A stretch of 64,000 bases of DNA from Thermoanaerobaculia bacterium (GTDB lineage Bacteria; Acidobacteriota; Thermoanaerobaculia; Gp7-AA8): assembly GCA_035482045.1 (NCBI GenBank), contig DATHRD010000015.1, forward strand, positions 14,597 to 78,596, in the 5' to 3' direction. The number at the start of each line of letters is the position of its first letter. Within the stretch, counting starts at the first letter, position 1. Both the position numbers and the translations under genes were made by a program. This document shows positions 4,412-63,415 of this stretch, piece after piece. Under the pieces are notes generated by a model. That model searched no databases. It worked only from the letters and a program-made list of their open reading frames with translations, and was not told the DNA's origin.

Positions 4412-4515
4412 GAACGAACCGAGACGAATGTTGAATGTTGAACGTTGAGTGTTAAATGTTGAATGAAGGTCAGCCACTCAACATTCACCACTGAACATTC
4501 AACATTCAACATTCG
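4405..4515. repeat. imperfect long inverted repeat built from tandem AATGTTG heptamers, AT-rich relative to the rest of the window
   Basis: acgaatgttgaatgttgaacgttgagtgttaaatgttgaatg ... cactcaacattcaccactgaacattcaacattcaacattcgt. Overlaps the 3-prime end of allantoinase and the 5-prime region of the allantoicase fusion gene. Confidence 0.8.
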
Positions 4516-8610: not shown

Positions 8611-10596
8611 ATGCGACATGTCGCCGTTGCGGCTGTGTTTCTGCTCGTCTGTCCGATCGCTATCGCCCAGCACCTCCACGCCACTACCGCCCCCGGGCGA
8701 GTCTCGCCGTGCGACAAAAAATTCGCGGAGGCTGTCAGCCAGCCGCAATTTGCGAACCGCGAGTGGGTAGTCACCAGCAACGGGACGGCGCAGAAGTACT
8801 TCGACCAAGGATTGACGCAGTATTACGGATTCAACTTTGAAGAGGCGCTGCGCAACTTCCGCGGAGCGGCGGCAGCCGATAGCACACTGGCCATGGCATA
8901 TTGGGGCATCGCGCTCGCGGCGGGCCCGAACATCAACCTCGGCATGGACGATCCGTGTCGCGCTGTGGCGCTGAAGGCGATCCTGGCTGCGGAGGAGCGG
9001 GCGAAGACGGGCAAAGACGACAGAGCCAAGCTGGCGCGCGCTCTGATCCACGCACTCTCGTTACGCTACAACGATCCGGGCGATCCGGTGTCGGAGGCAG
9101 TCGCCTACAGCGTCGCCATGGGCAAGATTTGGGACCAATACAAGGACCAACGCTCTGGCATCGGCGTCAGCGTTAATGTCGGCGCACTCTACGCCGAGAG
9201 TATGCTTGATCTACGCCCGTGGGGCGTGTACGACCATTGCAAGAGCGCTGCGCTCGAGACTCTCCAAATTGAGAGCGTCCTGGAGAACTGCATAGACAAT
9301 TCTCGCGACGCTCTCGGCGCGAATCACTTCTGGATACACACGGTCGAAGGGGGGCCCAAACCGGACACAGACCGGGATTTTTGGAGCGCGGAATTGCTGA
9401 CGCGGCTGGTTCCCGCGTCGGGGCATCTGGTGCACATGCCGTCGCACATTTTTCTGCTGAACGGCCAATACCTAAATTCTTTGAATAGCAACGTGCAGGC
9501 CGTGAACGCCGATTTAAGCGAGTACGAGGAATCCTGCCGCGGCTCGTACACGGTGTATAGCGCTAATGACAAATGCCCGCAGCTCTATTACGGCCACTAC
9601 CAAAGCCACAACTACTTCTTCGGCACCGTCTCCGCCACATTTCTCGGGCGAAGCGAGCAAGCGGTGAAACTAGCGTGCGACACGAGCGCGCACGCGCAGC
9701 GCTTCTCGGCCAATGAGCCGGAGTTGCAGCGATACATGACGGCGCCGCTCCTGACTCTGGTGATGAACCGCAACTGGTGCGCAGTCCTCAAGGAGCCGGA
9801 GCCACCCGAGGAGTGCTACATGTGCCCGTTTGTGCCGGATAAGTACCCGCTGAACGGTTGCCACATCCTTAGTTCCGTGCGGCATTGGGCGCGCGGGATG
9901 GCGTACATCGCCGGCGCCAACGACGACTCCAGCACATGCAAAGTCCAAGCACCCGATATCGCCAGGTCGCGCGGGGAGTATGACGCGATGGCGAAGGAGA
10001 TGACCAAGATCGTTCCTCCCACGCCGATCGGATGGGGTAACAACAGCGCCGCGGCGGTGCTGGCCATCGCTCAGTCGATGCTGAGGGCGCGCATCAGTTG
10101 GGCGAAAGGTCAGTGCGCGAAGTTCGGTGAGTGCAAAGCGGGCGGTTTGTGTGAGAAGGGTGGTCAGTGCGAGGCAGCCCTGGACGAGGCCATTTCGCAT
10201 CTGAAGCTCGCGGTCACGCACGAGGACGCGCTGGGATACGACGAGCCTCCACAGTGGTTCGCCCCCACCCGCGAGGCTCTCGGCGGCGCCTACCTGCAGC
10301 TAGGAGAGCTCCATCTTGCGGAGCAAGTATTCGATGAAGAGCTTGAGCGCCACCCGGCGAGCGGCCGCGCTCTCTATGGCAAGATGCGTGCACAAGGGAA
10401 AACCGACGATCTCGCTTTCTGCACTGCGTGGGCGAACGCTGATTACACGATGACCGACGAGGATCTTTGGCCGGCTGCGATACTCGATGCCAAGAGCAAT
10501 GTCGTAACGACATGCGGAAAAGAGATAAAGGCTCTGTCTAAAAAGAGTTGCTCAAATCCTTCGCTTCCGATCTCCTGCCCCACAAAGATGGAGTGA
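8611..10596 (+). CDS. secreted Cys-rich hypothetical protein with C-terminal TPR-like region
   Basis: Signal peptide MRHVAVAAVFLLVCPIAIAQ. Many Cys residues. C-terminal TPR-like segment. No family recognised. Inserted between xdhB and xdhA on the opposite strand. Confidence 0.6.
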   Translation: MRHVAVAAVFLLVCPIAIAQHLHATTAPGRVSPCDKKFAEAVSQPQFANREWVVTSNGTAQKYFDQGLTQYYGFNFEEALRNFRGAAAADSTLAMAYWGIALAAGPNINLGMDDPCRAVALKAILAAEERAKTGKDDRAKLARALIHALSLRYNDPGDPVSEAVAYSVAMGKIWDQYKDQRSGIGVSVNVGALYAESMLDLRPWGVYDHCKSAALETLQIESVLENCIDNSRDALGANHFWIHTVEGGPKPDTDRDFWSAELLTRLVPASGHLVHMPSHIFLLNGQYLNSLNSNVQAVNADLSEYEESCRGSYTVYSANDKCPQLYYGHYQSHNYFFGTVSATFLGRSEQAVKLACDTSAHAQRFSANEPELQRYMTAPLLTLVMNRNWCAVLKEPEPPEECYMCPFVPDKYPLNGCHILSSVRHWARGMAYIAGANDDSSTCKVQAPDIARSRGEYDAMAKEMTKIVPPTPIGWGNNSAAAVLAIAQSMLRARISWAKGQCAKFGECKAGGLCEKGGQCEAALDEAISHLKLAVTHEDALGYDEPPQWFAPTREALGGAYLQLGELHLAEQVFDEELERHPASGRALYGKMRAQGKTDDLAFCTAWANADYTMTDEDLWPAAILDAKSNVVTTCGKEIKALSKKSCSNPSLPISCPTKME

Positions 10597-10694: not shown

Positions 10695-12164
10695 CTACAC
10701 CCGCGCGAAGCGACGTTCCGCCGCCTCTTCGAACACCTCGTACCAGAACTTCGCCATGATGTTCTCTGCGAGTTGCAGCCTGTAGTCGGCGGAGCCCCGC
10801 ACGTCGCTGATCGGCTTGATCTCGTCGCGGGCGATGCGGCCGGCGTGCTCGAAGGTATCAAGGGTGGCCGTCTTGCCGGCCAGGAAGGCTTCCGTGTGCG
10901 GGAGGCGGATGACGGTAGGGGCGACGCCGCCGTAGGCGATGATGGCGTGGTCGATCCGATCGCCGCTGATTGCCAATCGAATGGCGGCGGTGAAGGCGGA
11001 GATGTCGAGATCCTTGCGTCGCGAGACCTTGTAGAGCTTGAGCGTGTCGCGGACGATGGGGATGCGAACGCTGGTGATGATCTCGTCGGGATGGAGATCG
11101 AACTTCCGGTATCCGAGGTAGAAGCGGTCGATCGGAACGGTGCGAGTGCCGCCGTTCAGCGCGAGGGTGGCGCCGGCGACGAAGAGATAAGGCAACGTGT
11201 CGGCGATTGGAGAGCCGTTGGCGATGTTGCCGACCAGCGTTCCGGCGTTCTTGATCTGAGGTGAGCCGAACACGGCCAGGATGCCCGCCAGCTCGGGGAT
11301 GCGATCGGCGATGAACGTCTCGAAGTCGGCGAGCGTCGCATTCGCGCCGGCGACGATCGCGCCGTCTTCTTCGCGCAACTCGTTGAGCGATGCGATCTTC
11401 GACAGTGACAGCATCGCCGGCGCGGCGAGGTTCCGCTTGTTGACCCAGACGCCGACGTCGGTCCCCCCCTGCACGATCGTGCATCCGGGATGGCCGCGTT
11501 TGAAGGCGATTGCCTCGTCGAGCGTGGCCAGCGCGCAGAAGGAGCCGACCTCCACGGAATCGCTTGCATCCGGAAGATCGGGATAGCGGTCGCGCATCTT
11601 GCTGATCGGCGCGCCGTCGATCGCCAGCGCGGCCTTGATGATCGGCTCGTAGCCGGTGCAGCGGCAGAGGTTTCCGGTCAGCCCGTCACGTACCTGTTTT
11701 TCATCGACCCGGTCACAGCGCTCGAACATTCCGGCCATGGCCATGACGAAGCCGGGCGTGCAGTAGCCGCACTGCGCGCCGTGGCAACGAACCATGGCCT
11801 CCTGAACAGGATGGAGAACGTTTTTACGCGGAGACGCGGAGACGCGGAGGGAGTCCTCTTTTCTCCGCGTCTCCGCGCCTCCGCGTGAAACGGTTTTCGT
11901 TTCGCTCAATCCTTCCACCGTGACGATCGATGATCCATCGAGCTGCGCGAGCGAAAGGATGCAGGCGTTGACCGGACGATAGTCGGCATCGGCCGTGCGC
12001 CGGGTCAATACCGTGCAGGCGCCGCAATCCCCTTCCTCGCAGACGATCTTCGTCCCAGTGGCAGCGACATCCTGTCGAAGATAGTTCGCGAGGGTCTCGA
12101 AGGCGACATCGCCGGCGATGCGATGTTCACGGCCGTTGATGTGGATGAGGATGTGGTCGCGCAC
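10695..12164 (-). CDS. xdhA: xanthine dehydrogenase small subunit (2Fe-2S and FAD-binding)
   Basis: EEGDCGACTV and CGYCTPGFVM ferredoxin motifs followed by an FAD-binding domain. Contains an unusual in-frame palindromic segment (separate feature). Confidence 0.85.
   Translation of the reverse strand: MRDHILIHINGREHRIAGDVAFETLANYLRQDVAATGTKIVCEEGDCGACTVLTRRTADADYRPVNACILSLAQLDGSSIVTVEGLSETKTVSRGGAETRRKEDSLRVSASPRKNVLHPVQEAMVRCHGAQCGYCTPGFVMAMAGMFERCDRVDEKQVRDGLTGNLCRCTGYEPIIKAALAIDGAPISKMRDRYPDLPDASDSVEVGSFCALATLDEAIAFKRGHPGCTIVQGGTDVGVWVNKRNLAAPAMLSLSKIASLNELREEDGAIVAGANATLADFETFIADRIPELAGILAVFGSPQIKNAGTLVGNIANGSPIADTLPYLFVAGATLALNGGTRTVPIDRFYLGYRKFDLHPDEIITSVRIPIVRDTLKLYKVSRRKDLDISAFTAAIRLAISGDRIDHAIIAYGGVAPTVIRLPHTEAFLAGKTATLDTFEHAGRIARDEIKPISDVRGSADYRLQLAENIMAKFWYEVFEEAAERRFARV
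11826..11888. repeat. near-perfect 24-bp-stem hairpin embedded in frame in the xdhA interdomain linker
   Basis: cgcggagacgcggagacgcggaggga gtcctctttt ctccgcgtctccgcgcctccgcg. Encodes the low-complexity segment VSRGGAETRRKEDSLRVSASPRKN. Confidence 0.8.
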
Positions 12165-15169: not shown

Positions 15170-15415
15170 ACAACACCATCGAGAATGGCGATGTCGCCAA
15201 GAAAGATGGCGATGTTGCCATCGAACATGGCGATGTTGCCTTCGAAAATGGCGATATCGCCCCCAAAGATGGTGATTTGCCAAAAAAGATGGCGATGTCG
15301 CCCCCAAAGACGGCGATGTTGCCATCAAGGTTGATGATGTTGCCAAAAAAATGATGATGTCGCCAAGAAAAATGGCGAGGTTGTCATCCGAAGTGAGGAC
15401 GTTGCCATCACTCTC
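15170..15415. repeat. tandem array of about 11 degenerate 21-bp units, each containing the palindrome ATGGCGATGTTGCCAT
   Basis: gatggcgatgttgccatcgaac / atggcgatgttgccttcgaaa / atggcgatatcgcccccaaa ... Low-GC relative to the flanks. Lies upstream of the NCS1 permease gene and downstream of the dihydropyrimidinase gene. Confidence 0.8.
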
Positions 15416-18879: not shown

Positions 18880-19076
18880 CGGTTGCGGGGTCGCGCGGCA
18901 GCGTGATTGCGCGGTCTCGCGGATTCGGTTGCTGAGTCGCTGGGTTACTGAGTTGCTGAGTCTACGGAAGCTGCCCAGCAACCCAGCAACCCCAGCAACC
19001 CAGCAACCCCAGCAATCCAGCAACTCAGCAACTCAGCAACCCAGCACCCCGAGACCGCGCAGCCGCGAGACCGCGT
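18880..19076. repeat. long imperfect inverted repeat made of GTTGCTGAG / CCCAGCAAC short tandem units, flanked by GCGGTCTCGCGG and CGCGAGACCGCG
   Basis: Left arm gcgcggtctcgcggattcggttgctgagtcgctgggttactgagttgctgagtc. Right arm ccagcaacccagcaaccccagcaacccagcaaccccagcaatccagcaactcagcaactcagcaacccagcaccccgagaccgcgcagccgcgagaccgcg. Confidence 0.8.
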
Positions 19077-21040: not shown

Positions 21041-21076
21041 CGGTTCCGCGGTCTCGCAGGTTTCGCGGTCTCGCGG
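21041..21076. repeat. direct repeats of the cgcggtctcgc motif
   Basis: cggttccgcggtctcgcaggtttcgcggtctcgcgg. Confidence 0.6.
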
Positions 21077-21189
21077 TAAGGCGGCACGGACAAGAGTGCC
21101 TGTGCCTGAAAAGAAGGTTGCCGCGCGACGGCGCAACCTCGCGACCTCGTCTGCTATCCTTTGAGCTGTCGCCGTTTCGGAGGATTTCA

Positions 21190-22589: not shown

Positions 22590-22734
22590 GTGGTTGCTGA
22601 GTTGCAAGGTTGCTGGGTCTCTCGGCAGCGCGGTCTCGCAGTAGCGCGGCGGCCACGAGCAGAGACCGCGAGACTTCGAAACCGCGAGACTTCGAGACCC
22701 AGCAACCCAGCAACCCGCATCACAGCAACCCGCA
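22590..22734. repeat. inverted repeat element combining GTTGCTG / CAGCAAC units with GCGGTCTCG / CGAGACCGC cores
   Basis: gttgctgagttgcaaggttgctgggtctc...gcggtctcg ... cgagaccgcgagacttcgaaaccgcgagacttcgagacccagcaacccagcaacccgcatcacagcaacccgcatcacag. Confidence 0.8.
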
Positions 22735-23382
22735 TCACAGCCCTTCCAGCGGCAAATCGAGCAGCTCGAACTTATCCCAGCCGCGAAAGTCGAAGTGCCA
22801 CCATTCGGATGGCAATGGGTCGAAGCCGTGGCTGATCATGGCCTCCCGCAGCTTGGCGCGATTCGCGAGAACCTCGGCCGGCAGGTCGTTGAAGTCCTGG
22901 CGCGCCCGAGGGGTGAAGTCGTCGTAGCCGGTGGGCATCGGCAGCTCGCGGCCGGTGTGCAGATCGATGAGCGTCAGATCGACGGCCGCGCCGCGGTTGT
23001 GACGCGAGCCTTTGGCCGGGTCGGCGACGAAGTCGGGATTGCGGATCGGTTTCCACATCTGTACAGTCACGCGATAGGGCCGATAGCCGTCGAAGATCTT
23101 CAACCCCAGCCCCTGGCGCGCCAGATCGCGCTCGACATCGTGCAGTGCGATCGCGGCCGGGCGGCGCAGGAAGACTCGCGGCACCGGATACAACTGCTCG
23201 TGCATGAAGTTGTTCGTGGTGGCGTAGCGCACGTCACGCGGGAGGTCGGTGATCTCGACCAGCCGTTTGTCGGGGTCGGCAGCCACGAGCCGGTCGTACT
23301 CGGCGACATCGCGGACGACGGGCGGATGCGTCGTCGCGCATGCGGTCGCAAGGAGCAGCAATAGGGCGAGGGCTCTTCTCAT
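22735..23382 (-). CDS. D-Ala-D-Ala dipeptidase (VanX/DdpX, M15 family) lipoprotein
   Basis: SRHNRGAAVDLTL and EWWHFD motifs. Lipobox LLLLATAC. Confidence 0.75.
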   Translation of the reverse strand: MRRALALLLLLATACATTHPPVVRDVAEYDRLVAADPDKRLVEITDLPRDVRYATTNNFMHEQLYPVPRVFLRRPAAIALHDVERDLARQGLGLKIFDGYRPYRVTVQMWKPIRNPDFVADPAKGSRHNRGAAVDLTLIDLHTGRELPMPTGYDDFTPRARQDFNDLPAEVLANRAKLREAMISHGFDPLPSEWWHFDFRGWDKFELLDLPLEGL

Positions 23383-37099: not shown

Positions 37100-37240
37100 T
37101 TACCTGATGTTGGGGGGTGGGGAGTGGGGGTGGGGAGTGGGAGAGGGAGTCGCGGTGGGAAGCTACTGCTCTGAAATCCAACTCCCAACTGCCACTCCCA
37201 CCCCCCACTCCCCACTCCCCACCCCCCACCCCGCGATATC
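37100..37240. repeat. G-rich / C-rich long palindrome of the GGGGTGGGGAGTGG family between mglA-like and eda-like genes
   Basis: ggggggtggggagtgggggtggggagtgggagagggag ... ctcccaactgccactcccaccccccactccccactccccaccccccacccc. Confidence 0.8.
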
Positions 37241-39868: not shown

Positions 39869-39879
39869 CCGAGGCCCCA

Positions 39880-40215
39880 GAGTCGATGTTTTGTCTCCCG
39901 GAGCAAAAGCTTTGACTCCCAGAGCCCAAGTCTTGACTCCCAGAGTCGAAGTTTTGACTGACAGAGTCGAAGTTTTGACTCCCGGAGTCGAAGTTTTGAC
40001 TCCCGGAGTCGCACTTTAGACTCCCAGAGTCGCACTTTAGACTCCCAGAGTCGCACTTTAGACTTCCGGAGTCGCACTTTAGACTTCCGGAGTCGCACTT
40101 TAGACTTCCGGAGTCGCACTTTAGACTCCCAGAGTCGCACTTTAGACTCTCAGAGTCGCACTTTAGACTCTCAGAGTCGCACTTTAGACTCTCAGAGTCG
40201 ATGCTTAGGCTCACT
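39880..40215. repeat. tandem array of about 15 copies of a 21-bp unit GAGTCGCACTTTAGACTCCCA, forming continuous alternating palindromes GAGTC...GACTC
   Basis: Early copies are the variant gagtcgaagttttgactccc[ag]. Later copies are gagtcgcactttagact[ct]cc[ag]. Lies in a convergent 3-prime/3-prime intergenic region. Confidence 0.85.
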
Positions 40216-41663: not shown

Positions 41664-42872
41664 GTGTCTCTCGCCAGACGTCTCGGCCTTCCTGAAGAGA
41701 CGCCCAAACCGGTCGCGCTGGCAGTCCTCTTTTACCTCGGTCATCTTTTCTGCGCCGGTTGGGCGGCCTCGTCCGAGATATTCGCGTTCGCGACGATGGT
41801 GACGGTCGGCTATGCGCTCTACCGGCGCCTGCTGGTCCCCTCGTTTCACATCCTCTACGTTCCGTTGGCGTTGTATGGACTCGACTCGACGGTCTCCTCG
41901 TTCGTGGCGGGCCGTCACATCCACACCTTCGGCGAGAGCGCGCTCTGGGGAAAGATGTTTCTCTTCCCGGCGGCGCTGATTCTCTTTCGAAACGTCCCAC
42001 GGAGCCGCGTGGCGGCTCTGCGGATGCTTCTCATCTTCGGCGTCTTCTCGGCGGGCTACGGCTTTGTGCAGTATTTTGCGCTGAGCGCACACCACGATCT
42101 CGATCACCGCATCACCGGCCCCGCGGCGCACGTGATGACTCTGTCGGGATTGCTCCTGCCCGTGGCGCTTTTGTTTCTCGTACTCTGGATCTACGACCTG
42201 CGCAATATGTTGCTCATCGCCGGCGTGGCGATGACGCACTTTGCTCTGCTGCTCACGTTCACACGCAGCGTGTGGCTTGGCTGGGTCGCGGCCGTGGCCG
42301 TCCTGCTCGTGCTGAAGTGGCCGAAAGCGTTGGCCTGGGCGGTGCCGGTGGCCATTCTGGCCGTCAGTTTCGCTCCGCTGCCCTTTTTCAGCAGGGTTGT
42401 CTCCAGCTTTGACGTGAGGCAGTCGTCGAACCTCGATCGAATCCGGATGGCGGAAGCCGGCATCGAGATCATCAAGGACTACCCGCTTTTCGGCGTAGGT
42501 CCGGCGAACGTCAAGGAAACCTATCCCCTTTACCGCAAGCACGATGCGCCCCGCTTCCGTATCCCACACCTGCACAACAACGTCATCCAGCTCTGGGCTG
42601 AGCGGGGGATCCTCGGGCTGGTGGCCTACCTCTTCCTCCAGTTTCTCTTCCTGCGCGCGTGTGCCCATGCTTGGGGGGGGCCGGCCACGAAGTTCGCGGA
42701 GGCCGGCGTCGCCGTGGCGGTCGGGCTGGCCGTGGCCGGCCTGTTCGAGTTCAACTTCGGCGATACCGAAGTCTTCTGGATGCTGCTGGACGTCTTCGCG
42801 CTCGTGATCGCCTTCATCGAACGGCCTCAGCCGTCGAATGAAGCCCTGTCGGCTGGTGTTCCGGGATCGTAA
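41664..42872 (+). CDS. O-antigen ligase / Wzy_C-domain polytopic membrane protein
   Basis: IPHLHNNVIQLWAERGILG matches the H..N....E.G signature of WaaL/Wzy_C. Confidence 0.6.
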   Translation: MSLARRLGLPEETPKPVALAVLFYLGHLFCAGWAASSEIFAFATMVTVGYALYRRLLVPSFHILYVPLALYGLDSTVSSFVAGRHIHTFGESALWGKMFLFPAALILFRNVPRSRVAALRMLLIFGVFSAGYGFVQYFALSAHHDLDHRITGPAAHVMTLSGLLLPVALLFLVLWIYDLRNMLLIAGVAMTHFALLLTFTRSVWLGWVAAVAVLLVLKWPKALAWAVPVAILAVSFAPLPFFSRVVSSFDVRQSSNLDRIRMAEAGIEIIKDYPLFGVGPANVKETYPLYRKHDAPRFRIPHLHNNVIQLWAERGILGLVAYLFLQFLFLRACAHAWGGPATKFAEAGVAVAVGLAVAGLFEFNFGDTEVFWMLLDVFALVIAFIERPQPSNEALSAGVPGS

Positions 42873-42974
42873 CCTTATCCCTGCCAGCCAGCGTCTGGAG
42901 AAGAAAACCGGTTGTAACCTTTCCCCGCGAGCTTGCGTCAAGTAGAGAGAACCGGGCCCGTAACCTTTCCCAGC

Positions 42975-43586
42975 ATGCCTTCGTCAAAGAAGAGAAACCG
43001 GGATTTGAAACGCCTGACCGATCAGGAGTTGATGGATCTCGTTCAGGCGGGTGATTTTTCTCCCGCCGCGGAGATTTACGAACGCTATTCGAGCCGTATC
43101 TACAGTTTTGCCTACCGCTTCCTGAGGAACAGCGAGGCGGCCGAGGACATAACCCAGGAAGTCTTCATCAAGATCATGAAACGCGCGGCCCAGTTTCACG
43201 GTGGATCAAAACTTTCGACGTGGCTTCTCGCAATCACGGCCAATTCCTGCCGCGACCACCTGAGGAAACAGGAGAACAGGCCGAAAGCAGGAGAGGATGT
43301 TTTGATCGAACTTCCCGCGCCATACGAGCTCTCGCCGGAGCGGTACATGGAGCGGCGCGACGCGGAAAGACGGATTCAGGAAGCGCTGACGGTGCTCACG
43401 CCCGACCAGCGCGAAGCCATTCTGCTCTCGCGGTACCAGGGACTCTCGTACGCCGAGATCGCGCAGGTTGCCGGTTGTTCGGAGGGAGCGGTGAAGACGA
43501 GAGTATTTCGCGCCATGGAGGTGCTGAAGAAAGCGCTGACCGGCGGTGCCCATGGAGGTGACCAATGCCTGACTGTGATGCCATGA
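42975..43586 (+). CDS. ECF-type sigma factor
   Basis: Sigma-70 regions 2 and 4 (SYAEIAQVAGCSEGAVKTRVFRA). Confidence 0.8.
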   Translation: MPSSKKRNRDLKRLTDQELMDLVQAGDFSPAAEIYERYSSRIYSFAYRFLRNSEAAEDITQEVFIKIMKRAAQFHGGSKLSTWLLAITANSCRDHLRKQENRPKAGEDVLIELPAPYELSPERYMERRDAERRIQEALTVLTPDQREAILLSRYQGLSYAEIAQVAGCSEGAVKTRVFRAMEVLKKALTGGAHGGDQCLTVMP

Positions 43587-52325: not shown

Positions 52326-53627
52326 ATGCGCCCTCTTTTTGCAGCCATGGCTCTTATCGCCGCGGGTCTCAGCCCCGCTCTCGCGCAGCCTCTTGTCTGT
52401 CCCCCTGTCGCCTCCGTCGCCGGCCGTGCGTGCGACACGTTTCACTATCACGTGCAGATGTTCAAGCCGGATACCCGCGAGTTCGTCGAGCTTTACGGGG
52501 TCAACCAGTTCGCCTCGATGGCGGCTTGTGAACGTGCCCGCGATGTGCAGTTCAAACGCAACATGGCGGTTGTCGAGTTCTTTCGTGCGCAGAGGAGAGA
52601 CTGGTGGCAGGCCGACAAATTCGGGCAGTGCCATTGCGACATGACCGTCGAACGCGCCAGCCCGAACGCGTTGACGGACGCCGCGCGGGTCCAGCAGATC
52701 CACGACGCGGAAGAGGTTCGGCAACGCGTCCGGGAGCGCCTGCTCGATGCCAGAGTCCCGGCAGACGCAGAGCTGATCCGCGATCTGGCCCCGCCGGTCA
52801 GCACCACACCGCTCATCGGCGGTCCCAAGCTGGTGTCGATGCCGCCTCCGGTTGCGGCCACGACAGTCTCGGGCTCGCCCGACGATCTTCGGATCACGAA
52901 GGCGGTCGATACGACCCCAGCATCGACGACATCGCTCGATCTGCCTCTCGTCGATGTCCCGTTGCCGGGCATCGCGCCGGCCATGGAAACCGCTCCCGCC
53001 ACTACGCCGACGCAAGTGCCGCCGCCCTCCGTGCCGCAGACGTCTGCCCCGGCTCCAGTCAGCAACGCCCCGGCGCAAGCGGTTCCAGCACCGCAGCCCG
53101 CGCAACCTTCGCCAGCCCCCGTCTCCACCGAGCCGTTGGCCATCGTCGACGATCCCGATCTCCCGGCGCCTGAAGATGTCGCAGACGCCTTCGTCAGCTA
53201 TGAGTCGCAGCGTATCCAGAACGTGTTGAAGGTCAGCGGCAGCATCGGCGACGAATCGATCAAGGCTCAGGTGCTCGATGCCTGTACGCAGCGGATCCAA
53301 CTCCTTTCGAACCTTCGCTCGATCATCGTCGGGTCCGGTGCGAAGAGTCGTCTGGTCGCGGCCACGAATGTCGCGAGAAAAGAGAGCGACCGCCTGGCCG
53401 TGGTGGCAAAACTGTTCGGGAGTGACGTGCCGCCGCACTGGGCGCCCAAGGATGCGTCCGATGTGATCTTCGACCCGGGTGTCACGGACCCGGAGCGAGT
53501 GCTCCGCGACAGCTCGTCGTCCGATCAACAGAAACGCCACGCTCTCTACGTTCTGCTGGCGACGACATCGCCGACCGAGCAGCAGCAGATGTGGCTAAAC
53601 TCCGTGATCGAGGCGCTGCTGAAATGA
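52326..53627 (+). CDS. secreted hypothetical protein with Pro/Thr/Ala-rich linker
   Basis: Signal peptide MRPLFAAMALIAAGLSPALAQ. Low-complexity PAPQPAQPSPAP segment. No family recognised. Confidence 0.5.
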   Translation: MRPLFAAMALIAAGLSPALAQPLVCPPVASVAGRACDTFHYHVQMFKPDTREFVELYGVNQFASMAACERARDVQFKRNMAVVEFFRAQRRDWWQADKFGQCHCDMTVERASPNALTDAARVQQIHDAEEVRQRVRERLLDARVPADAELIRDLAPPVSTTPLIGGPKLVSMPPPVAATTVSGSPDDLRITKAVDTTPASTTSLDLPLVDVPLPGIAPAMETAPATTPTQVPPPSVPQTSAPAPVSNAPAQAVPAPQPAQPSPAPVSTEPLAIVDDPDLPAPEDVADAFVSYESQRIQNVLKVSGSIGDESIKAQVLDACTQRIQLLSNLRSIIVGSGAKSRLVAATNVARKESDRLAVVAKLFGSDVPPHWAPKDASDVIFDPGVTDPERVLRDSSSSDQQKRHALYVLLATTSPTEQQQMWLNSVIEALLK

Positions 53628-55423
53628 AACCAGAAACCAGAAACCAAGAACCAGAAACCAGAAACCAGAAACCAGCAAGCGTGCGGCGATCACGATTCTC
53701 ATTTCCGCCTTCTGGTTTCTGGTTTCTGGTTTCTGGTTTCTGCCTTCTGGTTTCTGCCTCCTGCCTTTTCGCGCAGGCGCCGCCAGCTTCGCCCGTTCCG
53801 GCGCAGCCCGCAGGCCCTCCTTCTCAGCCCGCCGCGTCCGCGGCCATGCCTCCGAGCGAAGAGTTCGTGAAGGCGGTTTACTTCGGCGAAAAGTTCGCCG
53901 AGATGAAGGATTACGCAAACGCCTATCAGCAGTTCGCGAAGGCGGACGCGCTGCAGCCCGATGTGCCAGGTGTGCTGTACAACATGGGGGTTCTCCTCGC
54001 CCGCGCCGGCCGCTTCTCGGAGGCACAGGCCAAGGTCGATCGCTACAACCAGCTCTTTCCGGCCGGTGCCGAGAAACCGCTCGTCGCCAAACTGCAACTC
54101 GATCTGGAGTTCGAGCGGGAGCTTCAAAAGAAACGGCAGACGGATGAGGAGTACACCGCCATCTTCACGAGGGGCCGGTTCCTTTACGGCAAGGGTGATC
54201 TTTCAGCCGCGCTCAAGCTGTTCCAGGACGCCGAGCAACAGCGCCCTACCGATCCGGCCGCCGTTTTCAACCAGGGCGTTGTCTATGAAAAGCTCGGGGA
54301 TCTGAACAGAGCGGCGGAGCGCTTTCACCGCTACGAAGAACTGGAGCCCGACGCGAACGCGAAGTCGTCGGCGGATCAGCGCCTGCTCGGTATCGAGAGC
54401 GAGATGTCGGACATGAAGACGAAGATTGTCTGCCCCTTCTGCGGATGGCGGCTGCCGATCGGGTCGATCTGGTGCCCGCACTGCTGGCACGGTCCGTATC
54501 TCACGTCACAATCGCACTGGAATTCGAGGCCGTGTACCGATGGAGCAACGGCGACGCGCGCGACGTATTACGCTGACGGTCGTTTCGCGAAAAACGATTC
54601 ACTGCCTTGTCTCTTCAACGGCATGATGCTCGACGCGCTCCGCTATACGCCTGACCGCCAGCGGCGAGTCCAGGAGACGCGCAAGGCCGAGGGGTGGACG
54701 TACAGCGGAGACCTCATCCAGGGGTGGCATGACCGGCAGGGCAATGAGATTCGTTACGTCCAGGGGGCCGACTACCTCGAAAAGATCGTTTCCCCCAGCG
54801 GCGGAGACCTGCTGCTGTTCAACGCTCACAAAGCGCCTGATGCCGGTATCTGGCTGCTCGATCGGGAGGATGTCGTCATCGACGGTCAGAAGTACACGTC
54901 GCGCTACACCTTCGACGCCCAGAATCGCGTCGCCGAGCAGCAGGTCGTTTATCAGAACGCCGCCGGCTGCAATGACGTCATCACGATGACGGCACTCGCC
55001 ACGTACACGAACGATCTTCTGGCGGGGTTGCAGATCCGCGGAGGTTATACGGGCACTGTCGTTCAGGGCTCGCCGCGCGTCGATTGGGAGGCCAACGTCG
55101 CCTTCTCCTATGACGTCAACGCGCGAGAGACGAAGGAAGAGCTGGCCGTGAGCTCGATGACGAAGACCTACACGGAAAAGCCCTACGGCATGATGCGTCA
55201 GGAAGTGGCCGCGCTCTATCCGGAAATGCGCGTCCGCAAACCGATCGAGAGGATCCTCTATCTCGGCGATCGCTGCGGTGTCTCCGGCACGACAGTCCTC
55301 GGCAATCCCGTCGACCTCCGGCCGTTCTATGCCCTCACTCCGAATCTGGCCGTGGCCATCGCCAGCGGCGTCACCCGTGCGACGGTGAGTTTCACGTATC
55401 CGGACTCGTATAGGGTTCGATAG
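53624..55423 (+). CDS. secreted TPR-containing protein; signal peptide encoded by a (GAAACCA)n / (TGGTTTC)n inverted repeat
   Basis: MKPETRNQEPETRNQKP...FWFLVSGFCLLVSASCLFAQA then TPR-like units. ATGA overlap with the upstream stop. Confidence 0.55.
   Translation: MKPETRNQEPETRNQKPASVRRSRFSFPPSGFWFLVSGFCLLVSASCLFAQAPPASPVPAQPAGPPSQPAASAAMPPSEEFVKAVYFGEKFAEMKDYANAYQQFAKADALQPDVPGVLYNMGVLLARAGRFSEAQAKVDRYNQLFPAGAEKPLVAKLQLDLEFERELQKKRQTDEEYTAIFTRGRFLYGKGDLSAALKLFQDAEQQRPTDPAAVFNQGVVYEKLGDLNRAAERFHRYEELEPDANAKSSADQRLLGIESEMSDMKTKIVCPFCGWRLPIGSIWCPHCWHGPYLTSQSHWNSRPCTDGATATRATYYADGRFAKNDSLPCLFNGMMLDALRYTPDRQRRVQETRKAEGWTYSGDLIQGWHDRQGNEIRYVQGADYLEKIVSPSGGDLLLFNAHKAPDAGIWLLDREDVVIDGQKYTSRYTFDAQNRVAEQQVVYQNAAGCNDVITMTALATYTNDLLAGLQIRGGYTGTVVQGSPRVDWEANVAFSYDVNARETKEELAVSSMTKTYTEKPYGMMRQEVAALYPEMRVRKPIERILYLGDRCGVSGTTVLGNPVDLRPFYALTPNLAVAIASGVTRATVSFTYPDSYRVR
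53625..53765. repeat. inverted repeat composed of tandem GAAACCA heptamers (left arm) and TGGTTTC heptamers (right arm)
   Basis: gaaaccagaaaccagaaaccaagaaccagaaaccagaaaccagaaacc ... ttctggtttctggtttctggtttctgccttctggtttctg. Confidence 0.85.
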
Positions 55424-58414: not shown

Positions 58415-58493
58415 TTGCGAAGTGGCGCGGTTGCGGGGTCTCGCGGCGGCCGGCTACCGCGCGACCTCGGAACCGCGAGACTGCGAGACCGCG
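58415..58493. repeat. GCGGTCTCGCGG palindromic element abutting the bshA start codon
   Basis: gcggttgcggggtctcgcgg ... ccgcgagactgcgagaccgcg ATG. Confidence 0.75.
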
Positions 58494-59612
58494 ATGAGAA
58501 TCGGCATCACCTGCTATCCCACATTCGGAGGCTCGGGCGTTGTGGCCACGGAGCTCGGCGTCGCCCTGGCCCGCGGCGGCGACGACGTTCACTTCATAAG
58601 CTACGCCATGCCGTCGCGCCTCAACGTGCTGCACGAGCGCGTCCGCTTTCACGAGGTAACGGTCACGCCGTATCCCCTGTTTGATCCGTACCCGCCCTAC
58701 ACGCTGGCTCTGGCCACGAAGATGGCCGAGGTGGCCGTTTACGAAAAGCTCGACATCCTCCACGTGCACTACGCGATCCCGCACGCCATCAGCGCGCACC
58801 TGGCGCGCGAGATCGTCGGCTCGAAGGACCTTCGCTTCATCACGACGCTGCACGGTACCGACATAACGCTCGTCGGACGCGACGCAAGTTATCTGCCGAT
58901 CACCAGGTTCGGCATCGAGGTGTCCGACGGCGTGACCGCGGTGTCGGAATGGCTTCGAAAAGAGACCGCGAAGAACTTCGCCACCGAGAAGGAAATCGAA
59001 GTCATCCCGAACTTCGTCGATCCGGCCCGATTCCGCAAGCACGACAGCTCTCTCTCGAATCTTTTCTCCTCTTCGGGCGAGAAGCTGCTCTGTCATGTCT
59101 CCAACTTCCGCCCCGTCAAACGGATCATGGACGTGCTCGTGGTGTTCGAGCGCGTGTCGCGCGTGGTGCCCAGTCGTCTGGTGATGATCGGCGACGGCCC
59201 GGACCGTTCCCTCGCGGAGGCCTTCTGCCGCGACCATCACCTGCGCGAGAAAGTCTTTTTCCTCGGCAACGTTCCGAACCTCGAGGAGGTCGTTGGCGCC
59301 GCGGACGTTTTTCTCCTCCCGTCCGAGGCCGAGTCATTCGGTATGGCCGCTCTCGAAGCGATGGCCTCCGAGGTGCCGGTGATCGGCAGCCGTGCCGGCG
59401 GCCTGACCGAAGTCGTCGTGGAGGGAGAGACCGGCTACCTTCTCCCCGTCGGCGACGTCGAAGCGATGGCCGAGCGCGCCATCGAGATCCTCTCGAATCC
59501 CGACCTCCACCGCCGCCTGGGGCGGAATGGGCGGGATCTGGCGGAGGGGAAGTTCAACGTGAATCGTGTGGTGCCGAGGTATCGGGAGTTCTACGAGAGG
59601 GTGATCGGGTAG
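58494..59612 (+). CDS. bshA: GT4 glycosyltransferase BshA-like (N-acetylglucosaminyl-malate synthase)
   Basis: [22 protein letters not shown] is a BshA-type N-terminus. C-terminal E..E GT4 motif. Confidence 0.7.
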
Positions 59613-59657: not shown

Positions 59658-59870
59658 ATGTCTGGCAAAGTCATCATCACCACCCCGTTCCCGACGCCGG
59701 ATGAGGTTGCGGCCTACCTTCGCATCCCGCCGAAACGGGTCGCAGAGCTCCGGCGCATGATTGATGAAGTACGCGCGGAGACGTCGCGCAGTGATCGCAA
59801 CAAGAAGGCGCGGCGGAACGGCGGCCGAGCGCTTTCCACCCGCGGCAAAGCTACGCGCGCGAAGAAGTGA
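59658..59870 (+). CDS. small excisionase/AlpA-like HTH DNA-binding protein with basic tail
   Basis: TPDEVAAYLRIPPKRVAELRR resembles an HTH_17-type helix-turn-helix. Lys/Arg-rich C-terminus. Confidence 0.4.
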   Translation: MSGKVIITTPFPTPDEVAAYLRIPPKRVAELRRMIDEVRAETSRSDRNKKARRNGGRALSTRGKATRAKK

Positions 59871-59882
59871 GGTCGTACCACG

Positions 59883-60501
59883 GTGGCCACAAACCAGCCG
59901 AAGCCGCCGGTCGCCTTCATCAACATCCCATACGCGAAACAATACGAACGCGTGTATCTGGCGTTTATCGCCGGCACAGCCGGGTACGGTCTCGTTCCTA
60001 CGGCGGCTGTTCGGGACCCGTCGAGTCGGTTTCAGCTTGAACGCATTTACGAGCTGATCTCAACAGCTCAGTATTCGTTTCACGACCTGTCGTGGATGTC
60101 GCTCGATAGGAAATCGCCGCGGACACCACGTCTTAATATGGCCTTCGAGCTCGGGCTGGCTGTAGCGGTCAGCCGGGCTGCAGGCGCAGATCATCAGTGG
60201 TTCGCATTCGACACAGTCGCCTACCGTCTAGACAAGGCACTGAGTGATCTTGGCGGGATACGGCCACGAATCCGACCGATCGCCCGAGAGCGTCCTCCGC
60301 GCGCTGATGAACGTTCTCGGACGCGTGAGCGACCGGCCAACTTTTGCAAACCTGATCAACACCTATCGTGAGGTTGAAAAAGTGGCGCGACGAATCAAAC
60401 GCAATTACTCTCGTGATCTCTTTGATACGAAGCCTTTCAACGAATTGGTCTTTGTCGCCAGTGAAACAGCGCAACGATTCACACCAACAATTGCTGGCTG
60501 A
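59883..60501 (+). CDS. hypothetical protein split over two overlapping frames (possible frameshift); weak TIR-like resemblance
   Basis: ORF 59883..60371 (VAFINIPYAK ... YSFHDLSWM ... AFELGLAVAV) and ORF 60244..60501 (GTG start, protein-like sequence). The tail of the first ORF is Arg-rich and junk-like after about 60240. Confidence 0.3.
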
Positions 60502-60543
60502 ATATGGCTTCGACTGGACCCCTGAACGCCACGATAAGCGTCT

Positions 60544-60996
60544 TCACGATCCCTCCTCCCTCGCCAGCGTCCCCGAGAAAACCGCGTGGGGGGCTCGCTT
60601 GAGAATCTCGTTTCGAGCGATGGCGTAGCCAAGGATCGCGTCGACCAGCATGCGCCGCCCGTCGTGGGAGAAGAGGATCAGGACCTTTCGCTTGATCTCG
60701 CGGACTTCGACGATGTCTTCCCAGCGCATCCAACGCCCGCGCTTGCCGAACAGCTTCAGCACCCAGTTCTCGTACATCAGGCCGTCGTCGCTGAGGTAGA
60801 TGTGATCGCCGTACTGCACGGCAGCCGCGGCCAGCGTACCGAGGAAGAGCAGGATGAGGGCCACGATCGGCAGCGCCTCGATCTCCTTTTCACCCTTCGA
60901 CAGATAGTCGAACAGCAATGCCGCAGAGGCAAAGGACGCCGCGCAGGAGATCAGGCGCGCGACCGGCGTGCGGTCGAATTTGAGGATCTGAGACAT
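60544..60996 (-). CDS. small membrane protein with two TM helices and a bacterial-PH-like (DUF304/YdbS-like) C-terminal region
   Basis: TM segments LISCAASFASAALLF and LPIVALILLFLGTLAAAAV. C-terminal YENWVLKLFGKRGRWMRWEDIVEVREIK. Confidence 0.4.
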   Translation of the reverse strand: MSQILKFDRTPVARLISCAASFASAALLFDYLSKGEKEIEALPIVALILLFLGTLAAAAVQYGDHIYLSDDGLMYENWVLKLFGKRGRWMRWEDIVEVREIKRKVLILFSHDGRRMLVDAILGYAIARNEILKRAPHAVFSGTLAREEGS

Positions 60997-61007
60997 GGCG
61001 GGAAAGT

Positions 61008-61095
61008 ATAGGACGCGGTGTGTCGCGGTCTCGGGGTTGCGGGGTTACGAGGTCTCGGGGTTACGAGATCGCGGAGTGGGGGTTGCTGGGTTGCT
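61008..61095. repeat. GCGGTCTCG-family element forming the left flank of a 22-bp tandem array
   Basis: gcggtgtgtcgcggtctcggggttgcggggttacgaggtctcggggttacgagatcgcggagtgggggttgctgggttgc. Confidence 0.7.
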
Positions 61096-61129
61096 TAACG
61101 CGCGCATGGCCGGCGAAGCAGGCGACCGG

Positions 61130-61620
61130 TCAGTCATGGCTGTGAATCCGTCCATTCCAGACCCCGTGACTTGATGTCCCAGACCCCGAGACCTGATGTT
61201 CTGAACCCCGTGGATTGACGTCCCAAACCCCGAGACCTGACGTTCCACACTTCGGGACTCGCGTTCCGTACCCGGGACCTGACGTTCCGCACCCCGGGAC
61301 CTGACGTTCCGCACCCCGGGACCTGAGGTTCCGGACCCCGGGACCTGACGTTCCACACCCCGGGACCTGACGTTCCGGACCCCGAGACCTGACGTTCCGG
61401 ACCCCGAGACCTGACGTTCCGCACCCCGGGACCTGACGTTCCGGGCCCCGAAACCTGACGTTTCACACCCCGGGACCTGACGTTACGGACCCCGAGACCT
61501 GACATTACGCACCCTGGGACCTGACGTACCAAACCCCGAGACCTGACGTACCAAACCCCGAGACCTGACGTTACGGACCCCGAGACCTGACGTTACGGAC
61601 CCCGAGACCCGACGTTCCAC
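61130..61620. repeat. tandem array of about 20 degenerate copies of a 22-bp unit ACCCCGGGACCTGACGTTCCGC
   Basis: Copy variants accccgagacctgacgttccgg, accccgggacctgaggttccgg and others, with period 22. Closed by accgcgagaccgc at about 61620-61632. Confidence 0.85.
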
Positions 61621-61679
61621 ACCGCGAGACCGCATAACCTCGGCCCATGACCCACCTGCCGAAACTGCGCGACCGCGAA

Positions 61680-61702
61680 ACCTCGACTACAATCCCCGCC
61701 CC
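61680..61702 (+). promoter_or_regulatory. possible -10 element (TACAAT) 11 nt upstream of the proS ATG
   Basis: cgactacaatccccgccccATG. No Shine-Dalgarno sequence between the box and the start codon. Confidence 0.3.
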
Positions 61703-63415
61703 ATGCGCTGGAGCCAATATTTCATCAACACGTTGCGCGAAGTACCCGCTGACGCGGACGTCATCAGCCAGAAGCTGATGATGCGCGCCAGCATGATCCG
61801 CAAGGTCGCGGCGGGCATCTACACCTACCTCCCCCTGGGCCTTCGCTCGATGCAGAAGCTGGAAGCGATCGTACGCGAGGAGATGGGACGCGCCGGCGCC
61901 GTAGAGCTGTCGATGCCGACGATCCAGCCGGCCGAGCTATGGATGGAGTCGAAGCGCTGGGAGCGCTACGGCAAAGAGTTGCTGCGCGTCAAAGACCGCC
62001 ACGAGCGCGACTTCGTCTACGCGCCGACGGCGGAAGAGGTCATCACCGATACCGTTCGCGACGCCATCAACTCCTATCGCCTCCTGCCGGTGAATCTCTA
62101 TCAGATCCAGACGAAGTTCCGCGACGAAGTGCGCCCCCGCTTCGGCCTGATGCGTGGCCGCGAGTTCGTGATGAAGGATGCGTACTCGTTTCACGCCACG
62201 CGCGAATCGCTCGACGAGACGTACGAGAAGATGCGTGTCGCCTACAGCGCCGTCTTCCGCCGCTGCGCGCTGGACCATGTCGCCGTCGACGCCGACACCG
62301 GCAATATCGGCGGCTCGGCGTCGCACGAGTTCATGGTGCTGGCGCAGTCGGGCGAGGACGCGGTCGTGTCGTGTCCGAATTGCAATTACGGCGCGAACGT
62401 AGAGAAGGCGACGTCCACGTTCTTTCGCAGCGAGTTGGAGCCGGCAACGATGGTCGGGCTGGCCGCGGTCCACACGCCGGGCACTCAGTCGATCGACGAC
62501 GTCGGCAAGTTCCTCGGCAAGCCGACTTCGGAGCTGGTGAAGACGCTCGTCTTCGACACCGACAACGGTTGCGTGATGGTCCTGGTACGCGGCGACCGCG
62601 ACGGGAACGAGGTCAAGATCAAGAATCACCTCGGCGCGCAGTTCCTGGAGATGATGCCGGACACGCGGTTCGAACAAGCCACGGGCGGTCCGGTCGGCTA
62701 CTGCGGACCGGTTGGTACGAAGGCGCCGCGCGTTCTCGCCGACGTCTCCCTCAGGGGGCAGGTGAACTGGGTTGTCGGCGCCAATAAGCGCGATACGCAC
62801 CTCACCGGCGCGAATCCCGGCCGCGATTTTCCGGAGCCGGAGTACGGAGATTTCACGACCGTCTTTGCCGGCGATCCGTGCCCGCGGTGTGCCACGCCGC
62901 TGGAGATTTACCGCGGCATCGAGGTCGGTCACGTCTTCAAGCTCGGTACGAAGTACTCCGAGCCGATGAACTGCACGTTCCTCGACGAGAAGGGCGCGCG
63001 CCAGCCGATGATCATGGGCTGCTACGGCCTCGGCATCGGCCGTACGGTCGCCGCCGCCATCGAGCAGAGCCACGACGACGACGGCATCATCTGGCCGATG
63101 CCGATCGCGCCGTTCGAGGTGGTGGTGACGCAGATCGGCAAGGAAGACAACGTCCGTTCAACGGCCGGCGATATCTACCGCCAACTGTGCGACGCCGGTG
63201 TCGACGCAATCCTCGACGACCGCGACGAACGTCCGGGGGTGAAGTTCAAGGACGCGGACCTGATCGGCTTCCCGCTCCGCATCGGTGTGGGCGCGAAGAG
63301 CCTAGCCAACGGCCAGATCGAGTGGAGCTTCCGCAAGGATCGCGTGAAGCAGCTCGGAGCGGCGGATGAGGTCGTGGCGCGGGTGATCGAAGACGTGCGC
63401 AACGCGAGGGTGTGA
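61703..63415 (+). CDS. proS: prolyl-tRNA synthetase (bacterial type with editing domain)
   Basis: MRWSQYFINTLREVPADADVISQKLMMRA... Class II aminoacyl-tRNA synthetase motifs and anticodon-binding domain. 570 aa. Confidence 0.95.
   Translation: MRWSQYFINTLREVPADADVISQKLMMRASMIRKVAAGIYTYLPLGLRSMQKLEAIVREEMGRAGAVELSMPTIQPAELWMESKRWERYGKELLRVKDRHERDFVYAPTAEEVITDTVRDAINSYRLLPVNLYQIQTKFRDEVRPRFGLMRGREFVMKDAYSFHATRESLDETYEKMRVAYSAVFRRCALDHVAVDADTGNIGGSASHEFMVLAQSGEDAVVSCPNCNYGANVEKATSTFFRSELEPATMVGLAAVHTPGTQSIDDVGKFLGKPTSELVKTLVFDTDNGCVMVLVRGDRDGNEVKIKNHLGAQFLEMMPDTRFEQATGGPVGYCGPVGTKAPRVLADVSLRGQVNWVVGANKRDTHLTGANPGRDFPEPEYGDFTTVFAGDPCPRCATPLEIYRGIEVGHVFKLGTKYSEPMNCTFLDEKGARQPMIMGCYGLGIGRTVAAAIEQSHDDDGIIWPMPIAPFEVVVTQIGKEDNVRSTAGDIYRQLCDAGVDAILDDRDERPGVKFKDADLIGFPLRIGVGAKSLANGQIEWSFRKDRVKQLGAADEVVARVIEDVRNARV

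Follow-up and report, generated by a model that had tools for sequence, protein, structure and literature searches.

The window analysed here is a stretch of 64,000 nucleotides from an uncultured Thermoanaerobaculia bacterium (contig DATHRD010000015.1). Towards its right end lie two divergent genes: proS, which encodes prolyl-tRNA synthetase, and a small open reading frame (ORF) that has two hydrophobic segments and belongs to no Pfam family. The two flanking proteins, HSY48182.1 and HSY48183.1, come from a Thermoanaerobaculia metagenome-assembled genome. Between the two genes we find a tandem array of a 22-bp unit. The array is part of a larger element of 672 bp, and this element lies between two outward-facing -10-like promoter boxes, see Table 1.

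The initial annotation had placed a tandem array of period 22 in this divergent region upstream of proS, and this is borne out in three ways. Tandem Repeats Finder reports the array with 82% matches, 0% indels and a score of 520, and its units abut head to tail over 477 bp. Compared with itself, the array has a self-match of 0.79 at lag 22 and 0.77 at lag 44, while lags that are not multiples of 22 stay at or below 0.38. Finally, a 16-nt core of the unit, ACCCCGRGACCTGACG, is present in 18 copies at two or fewer mismatches in the 64-kb window, and all 18 lie within the array; about 0.13 copies are expected by chance, and none of 100 shuffled sequences reached 18. The consensus is the originally annotated unit, rotated and with A for G at one position. 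The exact 22-mer of that annotation occurs once, at 61291, and 14 copies are found when up to three mismatches are allowed.

The units are far from identical. Distinct variants make up 17 of the 20 array units, the left end of the array is degenerate while the units become more uniform to the right, and the register is moved by 2 nt at one pair of short units (61243-61268). Within the unit, the 16-nt core is well kept and six linker positions are variable, and the same pattern is seen in a second array described below. The unit had been called partly palindromic, which is correct for CCCGGG and ACGT only; beyond these two motifs the description fails, and the array has no folding signal.

The array is non-coding and is not a CRISPR (clustered regularly interspaced short palindromic repeats) array, as had been proposed. 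The plus strand contains 6-8 stop codons in every frame. The ORFs on the array, including the open frames of the minus strand, have no Pfam family, and a search with their translations gave no homologue. A protein-coding repeat was further rejected because 22 is not a multiple of three, so that the gain or loss of one unit shifts the frame. One pipeline does call a 159-aa "gene" here (9454-9933 on the minus strand of the related assembly L001, corresponding to 61134-61635 of the window), but it is a false gene call, since the few stops on the minus strand result purely from the composition of the unit. This is a warning for annotation: gene callers put false ORFs on such arrays, and such arrays also break short-read assemblies. 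As to CRISPR, the units abut with an exact 22-bp period and zero spacers, and there are no cas genes among the Pfam labels of the genes called within 10 kb on either side. Non-coding repeats arranged head to tail, with a unit of about 10-100 bp, are what is called a minisatellite or variable number tandem repeat (VNTR), and the array is of this kind.

Table 1. Features of the proS locus and related features. Coordinates refer to the window unless L001 is named.
Feature	Coordinates	Strand	Description and basis
Small ORF	60544..60996	-	150 aa, two hydrophobic segments, HSY48182.1; divergent neighbour of proS
-10-like TATACT (AGTATA on +)	61005..61010	-	8 nt upstream of small-ORF ATG; left border of insertion site
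Whole lineage-specific element	61016..61687		672 bp; window and L126 junctions compared
G-rich left arm	61015..61094	+	8-, 16- and 24-nt tandem units; Tandem Repeats Finder, motif positions
Non-repeat spacer, "loop" side	61095..61154		from left arm to array; sequence in register
22-bp minisatellite	61155..61631	+	21.8 copies, consensus TTCCGGACCCCGAGACCTGACG, 40% C on + strand
Inverted repeat ACCGCGAGACCGC	61621..61633	+	partner of 61025-61037 (13 nt, 92% complementary); closes array
Outer right inverted repeat CCGAAACTGCGCGACCGCGAAAC	61659..61681	+	partner of 61020-61042 (23 nt, 78% complementary)
-10-like TACAAT	61688..61693	+	9 nt upstream of proS ATG; invariant in all relatives; right border
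proS, prolyl-tRNA synthetase	61703..63415	+	570 aa, HSY48183.1
L001 genes with TAnAAT	7978, 10001, 13443, 20488 (L001)	+	compare window 61005-61010, 61688-61693
L001 gene with TAnAAT	9316 (L001)	-	compare window 61005-61010, 61688-61693
Repeat hairpins	1043-1139, 4426-4514, 11826-11886, 18928-19075, 21042-21149		Tandem Repeats Finder, folding
Repeat hairpins, continued	22616-22741, 37111-37232, 53626-53767, 58430-58500		Tandem Repeats Finder, folding

The sequence to the left of the array suggests what the array may be. The G-rich left arm holds GCGGTCTCG at 61025-61033 and, twice, GGTCTCGGGGTT (61027-61038 and 61051-61062), the 22-mer core in reverse complement. At least 10 array units have a core to which the 12-13-mers (A)GGTCTCGGGGT(T) of this arm are perfectly complementary. 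If the 16-nt unit of the left arm is reverse-complemented (TCGTAACCCCGAGACC), it equals, as judged by eye, the 22-mer variant GACGTACCAAACCCCGAGACCT minus about six bases. Because the array core is complementary to the left arm, we interpret the array as one arm, the C-rich one, of an inverted-repeat element that has overgrown. The last ~25 nt of the spacer between the two arms, GCTGTGAATCCGTCCATTCC, are a degenerate unit.

Inverted repeats also frame the array. The 9-mer GCGGTCTCG, reported earlier on both of its sides, is indeed found there in inverted orientation, at 61025 on the plus strand and at 61625 on the minus strand; the whole window contains 13 copies of it against 3.2 expected. 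Two inverted pairs, 61020-61042 with 61659-61681 and 61025-61037 with 61621-61633, enclose the array in the manner of a BOX element. They are also terminal inverted repeats of the sort carried by MITEs (miniature inverted-repeat transposable elements), although weak by MITE standards. When 61005-61645 is folded, the partners of the left arm are the terminal CACACCGCGAGACCGC and the final two or three units (z = -2.4).

Orthologous loci of relatives, retrieved via ProS homologues, show that the element is an addition. The divergent pair of small ORF and proS is kept in all of them, with a small-ORF orthologue of 149-155 aa, and every locus reads CAT, 8-11 nt, AGTATA (AGTAAA in L127), a variable stretch, TACAAT, 9 nt, ATG. 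The start codons are 706 bp apart in the window and 684 bp apart in L001, whose ProS is 100% identical to that of the window. In contrast, the gap is only 41-44 bp in six of the eight closest relatives, with ProS identities of 89-93% and both -10-like boxes retained: 44 bp in L126 (93%) and L131 (92.6%), 42 bp in L122/L123 (91%) and L124 (89%), and 41 bp in L127/L128 (89%). In L126 the junction reads ...AGTATAGGACG-gcctgcgcga-TACAAT and in the window ...AGTATAGGACG-672 bp-TACAAT. Thus, positions 61016-61687 have been added exactly between the two outward-facing boxes, where the element stands in place of the 10-15 bp that separate the boxes in the relatives with an empty site. No clear target-site duplication can be read between the filled site of the window and the empty site of L126, the flanks having diverged.

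The two remaining relatives, L125 and L129 (ProS 88% in both), have gaps of 381 and 126 bp, respectively. At the insertion site they carry other short-tandem-repeat hairpins, with arms GTTGCTGG/CCAGCAAC and GGTCTCG/CGCGACC. The right end of these elements is ACCTCGAA followed by TACAAT, as in the window, i.e., ...ACCTCGA(C/A) and then TACAAT is common to them and the window element. The 22-mer is not present in either. It had been suggested to look for the 22-mer in related genomes; at the proS locus the eight closest relatives are all without it, and an unrelated locus has a second array. The idea of a conserved proS regulator, for example a T-box or another leader, was rejected in view of the empty sites and of the -10 box only 9 nt from the ATG.

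The element belongs to a class of intergenic short-tandem-repeat hairpins that is abundant in this genome. The window contains nine intergenic hairpins whose two arms consist of tandem 7-8-nt repeats and their reverse complements (Table 1). Seven of the nine have fold z-scores from -5.6 to -12.6, while 21042-21149 (z = -2.6) and 58430-58500 (z = -2.3) are weak. Their units include CGCGGTCT, GTTGCTGG, GGGGAGT, GAAACCA, GAATGTT and ACGCGGAG, and they sit between co-directional, convergent and divergent genes alike. The units GCGGTCTCG and GTTGCTGG of the proS element are reused in several of them. In sister hairpins the C-rich arm has about twice the length of the G-rich arm, for example 18928-18961 versus 18974-19050, and the same is true in L125 and L129. 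The proS element is the extreme case of this trend towards a long C-rich arm.

The array also changes in length by whole units. Over 12.3 kb, one mismatch and one gap separate the window from an independent ENA assembly, ERZ27253567 (L001). The gap is exactly one 22-bp unit, out of two identical adjacent units, and the remaining unit variants follow in identical order. The array is thus the most changeable stretch of the 12.3 kb that the two have in common. Copy-number variation between strains, which had been raised as a point to check, is therefore seen between close strains, in assemblies that are both built from short reads and in an array that is longer than such reads. A JGI contig has the same 706-bp gap between the start codons as the window.

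A scan of metagenome contigs with a two-unit array pattern, CCCCGRGACCTGACGTNNCNNACCCCGRGACC, found one other contig, Ga0210394_10000247 (L121). It contains an array of about 19 units with the same consensus as in the window, two identical unit variants and a degenerate leading unit similar to GCTGTGAATCCGTCCATTCC. The array lies downstream of an ATP-binding cassette (ABC) permease gene, and the closest named homologues of the permease are from Thermoanaerobaculia. In another locus (L130), where the permease orthologue is 93% identical, an ACT-domain gene comes immediately next and there is no array. Neither the complementary G-rich arm nor the terminal repeats were found within the 1.7-kb L121 locus; among the matches listed, this is the one further locus with an array, and it is without the ends. 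In genome contigs, a scan with the 16-mer gave only single chance matches among the matches listed. The 22-mer is, as far as these sequences indicate, a small dispersed family with two known copies, both lineage-specific. About 160 bp past the L121 array, on the minus strand, there is a near-consensus promoter match, TTGACA-17 nt-TATATA. Some 190 nt with hairpin potential follow, in which there is neither an obvious ORF nor an Rfam match, and the locus ends after them.

We suggest that the array is probably a lineage-specific, non-coding minisatellite (VNTR), formed as the overgrown C-rich arm of the 672-bp inverted-repeat element. The 16-nt unit of the opposite arm would have acquired about six extra bases, and the resulting 22-bp unit would then have been amplified to ~21 copies by slipped-strand mispairing or unequal recombination, with whole units still being gained or lost. 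Most likely no transcription crosses the array and the array would have no sequence-specific function. Its only likely effect is architectural, i.e., the insertion would part two formerly overlapping promoters by about 660 bp and replace the DNA upstream of both.

This architectural effect can be described in some detail. Where the site is empty, 10-15 bp separate the -10 boxes of the relatives, so the two divergent promoters must overlap. In the lineage of the window the promoters would instead lie ~670 bp apart, with upstream DNA supplied by the element. In 61000-61702 just two -10-like hexamers are good, namely the conserved ones, and both face away from the array; a generic promoter scan found no sigma-70-like promoter in the region. 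Since the conserved TACAAT stands 9 nt ahead of the proS ATG, the proS mRNA should be near-leaderless and start downstream of the array. The array would accordingly be upstream of both transcription starts and outside either mRNA, judged from the positions of the boxes. Of 14 genes in L001, five lack a Shine-Dalgarno sequence and carry a TAnAAT hexamer 8-11 nt ahead of the ATG (Table 1), which suggests that leaderless or near-leaderless mRNAs are common in this lineage.

Several points weigh against the interpretation of the array as an overgrown arm without function. A kept 16-nt core with six varying linker positions is the pattern that a recognition site would show. Two other minisatellites of 21-bp period occur in the same 64 kb, so a period near two helical turns may be favoured. 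The L121 locus has no G-rich arm, and an origin from an overgrown arm would there need a transfer step. The lack of transcription across the array is itself deduced from sequence, and the one-unit difference between the assemblies could in principle reflect the collapse of two identical units by an assembler.

The first of these points leads to a functional alternative, in which the units are phased binding sites for a DNA-binding protein, be it architectural, an insulator or a regulator, that coats ~480 bp upstream of both promoters. The initial annotation had already noted that 22 bp is close to two helical turns. However, at 10.5 bp per turn each unit drifts by ~34 degrees, so that successive sites would come to lie on different faces of the helix. 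The conserved core and variable linker are found in both the window and the L121 arrays, and both arrays are upstream of promoter-like sequences, ~55 bp before TACAAT in the window and ~160 bp before TTGACA-17-TATATA in L121. The two 21-bp-period arrays of the window, whose cores are palindromic, also speak for this alternative, but the 22-bp unit itself is not palindromic and has no internal symmetry. Further, no isolated copies of the core exist elsewhere in the 64 kb at two or fewer mismatches, no neighbouring gene co-occurs with the array, and six of the eight close relatives lack it although both genes and both -10 boxes are kept. The comparative data weigh against a conserved role of the array at proS, and we consider this alternative unlikely.

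Alternatively, the array may have arrived ready-made, as the cargo of a non-autonomous mobile element of MITE or BOX type, and not have grown in place. The 22-mer at the unrelated L121 locus, with common variants and a degenerate leading unit, would speak for this, as would the terminal inverted repeats and the clean empty sites in relatives. However, the L121 copy is without both the G-rich arm and the terminal repeats, no target-site duplication is readable at the junctions, no transposase gene is nearby, and no match was found in phage or plasmid collections or in viral contigs. The related hairpins of L125 and L129 at the same site fit long residence and in-place turnover. An origin as mobile cargo is in our view as improbable as the binding array.

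A bolder proposal, about which we are quite doubtful, takes the 22-bp array and the two 21-bp arrays together as lineage-specific, helically phased minisatellites that are kept for a role at the DNA level, where copy number would tune expression. Such a role could, for example, consist in binding a dedicated architectural protein or in insulating the neighbouring promoters. In this proposal the parent hairpins, which keep their arms complementary during unit replacement, would point to an active process of copying from arm to arm.

It is very unlikely that the array is transcribed and acts as RNA, whether as a long 5' leader of proS, as a sponge RNA rich in repeats or as small hairpins in a row. 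Each unit has a GGA triplet on both strands, the kind of motif seen in a CsrA-type sponge, and the plus strand is C-rich and G-poor like a Rho loading region. However, the fold is no better than that of dinucleotide shuffles on either strand (z = -1.4 on plus and -1.2 on minus), while the real hairpins nearby reach -5.6 to -12.6, and the string of small RNA hairpins envisaged in the initial annotation is therefore not upheld. In addition, no sigma-70-like promoter and no -10-like hexamer points into the array, the proS mRNA would be near-leaderless and start downstream of it, and close relatives do without the array. A known RNA family was rejected as well: Rfam 15 gives no match at gathering score in the window, none at E <= 5 in 60900-61800 and none in L121, and no tRNA or tmRNA (transfer-messenger RNA) gene is present. 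A G-quadruplex array was set aside from the sequence, since the G4 runs on the minus strand are 18 nt apart, too far for stable quadruplexes.

It is hardly credible that the array arose in assembly, or that it is a repeat which was collapsed or expanded and which the cell does not have: it does exceed a short read and sister arrays do break contigs in other assemblies, but three assemblies from different pipelines, including ERZ27253567 and the JGI contig, place it at the same site, the order of unit variants is the same in the window and L001 except for one unit, and with 17 of 20 units distinct, long k-mers are unique.

The array represents a new family of bacterial repeat DNA of a known kind, and we found no paper on such repeats in Thermoanaerobaculia or Acidobacteria. 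Architecturally, the element is closest to the pneumococcal BOX elements. These are composite intergenic elements in which terminal inverted modules surround a variable number of tandem boxB modules; the ends fold with little contribution from the internal modules, lengths go up to 637 bp, and variation between strains is greater for the larger arrays (PMC3049150). The proS element likewise has inverted ends around ~21 tandem units, an array that does not fold on itself, a length of 672 bp and a one-unit difference between assemblies. However, its unit is 22 bp and not 45 bp, its copy number is far above the usual number of boxB, and its GC-rich unit has no obvious likeness to boxA, boxB or boxC. 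Also, only two loci of the 22-mer are known, and the array unit would be derived from the complement of the opposite arm.

The nearest described analogue of the other hairpins in the window is the group of short tandemly repeated repetitive (STRR) sequences of cyanobacteria. STRR sequences are intergenic tandem 7-bp repeats that can form hairpins, e.g., between hupS and hupL, and their function is unknown (PMC2670836). The at least nine hairpins of the window with 7-8-nt tandem units in both arms resemble them, and so does the left arm of the proS element. The 22-mer array differs: it is not a stable hairpin with 7-8-nt units in both arms but a one-armed array of a 22-bp unit that is not self-complementary, and it is found in another phylum, Acidobacteriota (Thermoanaerobaculia). 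Repetitive extragenic palindromic (REP) units are individually palindromic, alternate in orientation within bacterial interspersed mosaic elements (BIMEs) and carry GTAG or CGTC tags (PMC3733652). Like REP/BIME sequences, the repeats described here are intergenic and clustered, and they are associated with a genome-wide family of hairpins, but all array units are direct and have no internal palindrome beyond the two short motifs named above.

Mycobacterial interspersed repetitive units (MIRUs) measure 46-100 bp and are found inside operons. Like these MIRU/VNTR loci, the array consists of head-to-tail, intergenic, non-coding units of tens of base pairs that change in copy number by whole units; unlike them, it lies between two divergent promoters and is part of an inverted-repeat element. 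The iterons of plasmids are 17-22-bp direct repeats at replication origins, present in 3-7 copies beside a rep gene and an AT-rich origin. The array shares with iterons the direct orientation and the ~22-bp unit, but it has ~21 copies, housekeeping genes of a chromosome as neighbours and neither a rep gene nor a plasmid match. A plasmid iteron or phage origin was rejected: the array has proS, the membrane ORF, the bsh operon and a PHP-domain gene as neighbours, blastn against plasmids and phages gave no match for it, and viral contigs contain no match to its pattern.

The locus is a concrete, datable example of intergenic growth, in which a 41-44-bp gap with two overlapping divergent promoters became a gap of 706 bp in one lineage and one arm of a repeat element swelled into a minisatellite. 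It also marks Thermoanaerobaculia-like soil Acidobacteriota as organisms rich in STRR-like repeat hairpins. Were the array bound by a protein, or did it tune the promoters, this would make it a copy-number-variable control region of a new type, a case that the evidence does not favour.

More unusual than the array itself is the way in which, on comparison of orthologous sequences, hairpins keep their place and the complementarity of their arms while the unit is replaced. Hairpin 53626-53767 of the window is orthologous to 2422-2560 of L129, with the loop GCGATCACGATTCTC and the flank, in which the upstream gene has its stop codon, both kept. The unit is GAAACCA/TGGTTTC in the window and GAAGGCA/TGCCTTC in L129, i.e., a wholesale compensatory replacement over about seven copies per arm. 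A few TTCTGCC units are still present in the right arm of the window hairpin. The spacer between bshB and bshA similarly holds a hairpin with different units in the window (58430-58500), L125 (4203-4330) and L129 (7238-7346), and in L125 and L129 its C-rich arm is about double the G-rich one. No spacer exists in L124 and L127, where bshB and bshA overlap.

The two 21-bp minisatellites mentioned above have a different character. At 39876-40201, between convergent cyclase and glycosyltransferase genes, about 15 copies of the unit GAGTCGCACTTTAGACTCCCA contain internal GAGTC/GACTC inverted repeats and are strongly self-complementary (z = -9.3). A Logan contig (L132) ends inside this minisatellite; the JGI gene list stops at the adjacent cyclase gene, and the JGI contig may end there too. 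The other, at 15185-15407, lies upstream of the gene for a cytosine/purine permease. Its unit, present in about 10 copies, consists of the palindrome GGCGAYRTCGCC and an A-rich 9-nt spacer; it shows higher-order periods of 62 and 83 bp and folds with z = -9.6 on the plus and -6.0 on the minus strand. Its phased A-tracts suggest curved DNA or an array bound by dimers. A 46-bp unit is further repeated three times (74% matches) at 42861-43002, between two co-directional genes.

Around the small ORF, gene content differs between relatives. A gene for an 802-804-aa protein with an SLT domain (lytic transglycosylase family) follows the small ORF in L124, L125, L127 and L131 and is missing next to it in the window and L129. 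In the window, 59870-60540 has a lower GC content (0.59 versus 0.63) and no convincing gene. Finally, the left arm of hairpin 37111-37232, GGGGGGTGGGGAGTGGGGGTGGGGAGTGGG..., is also a strong G-quadruplex-type motif whose partner arm is C-rich, and a competition between hairpin and quadruplex is conceivable there.

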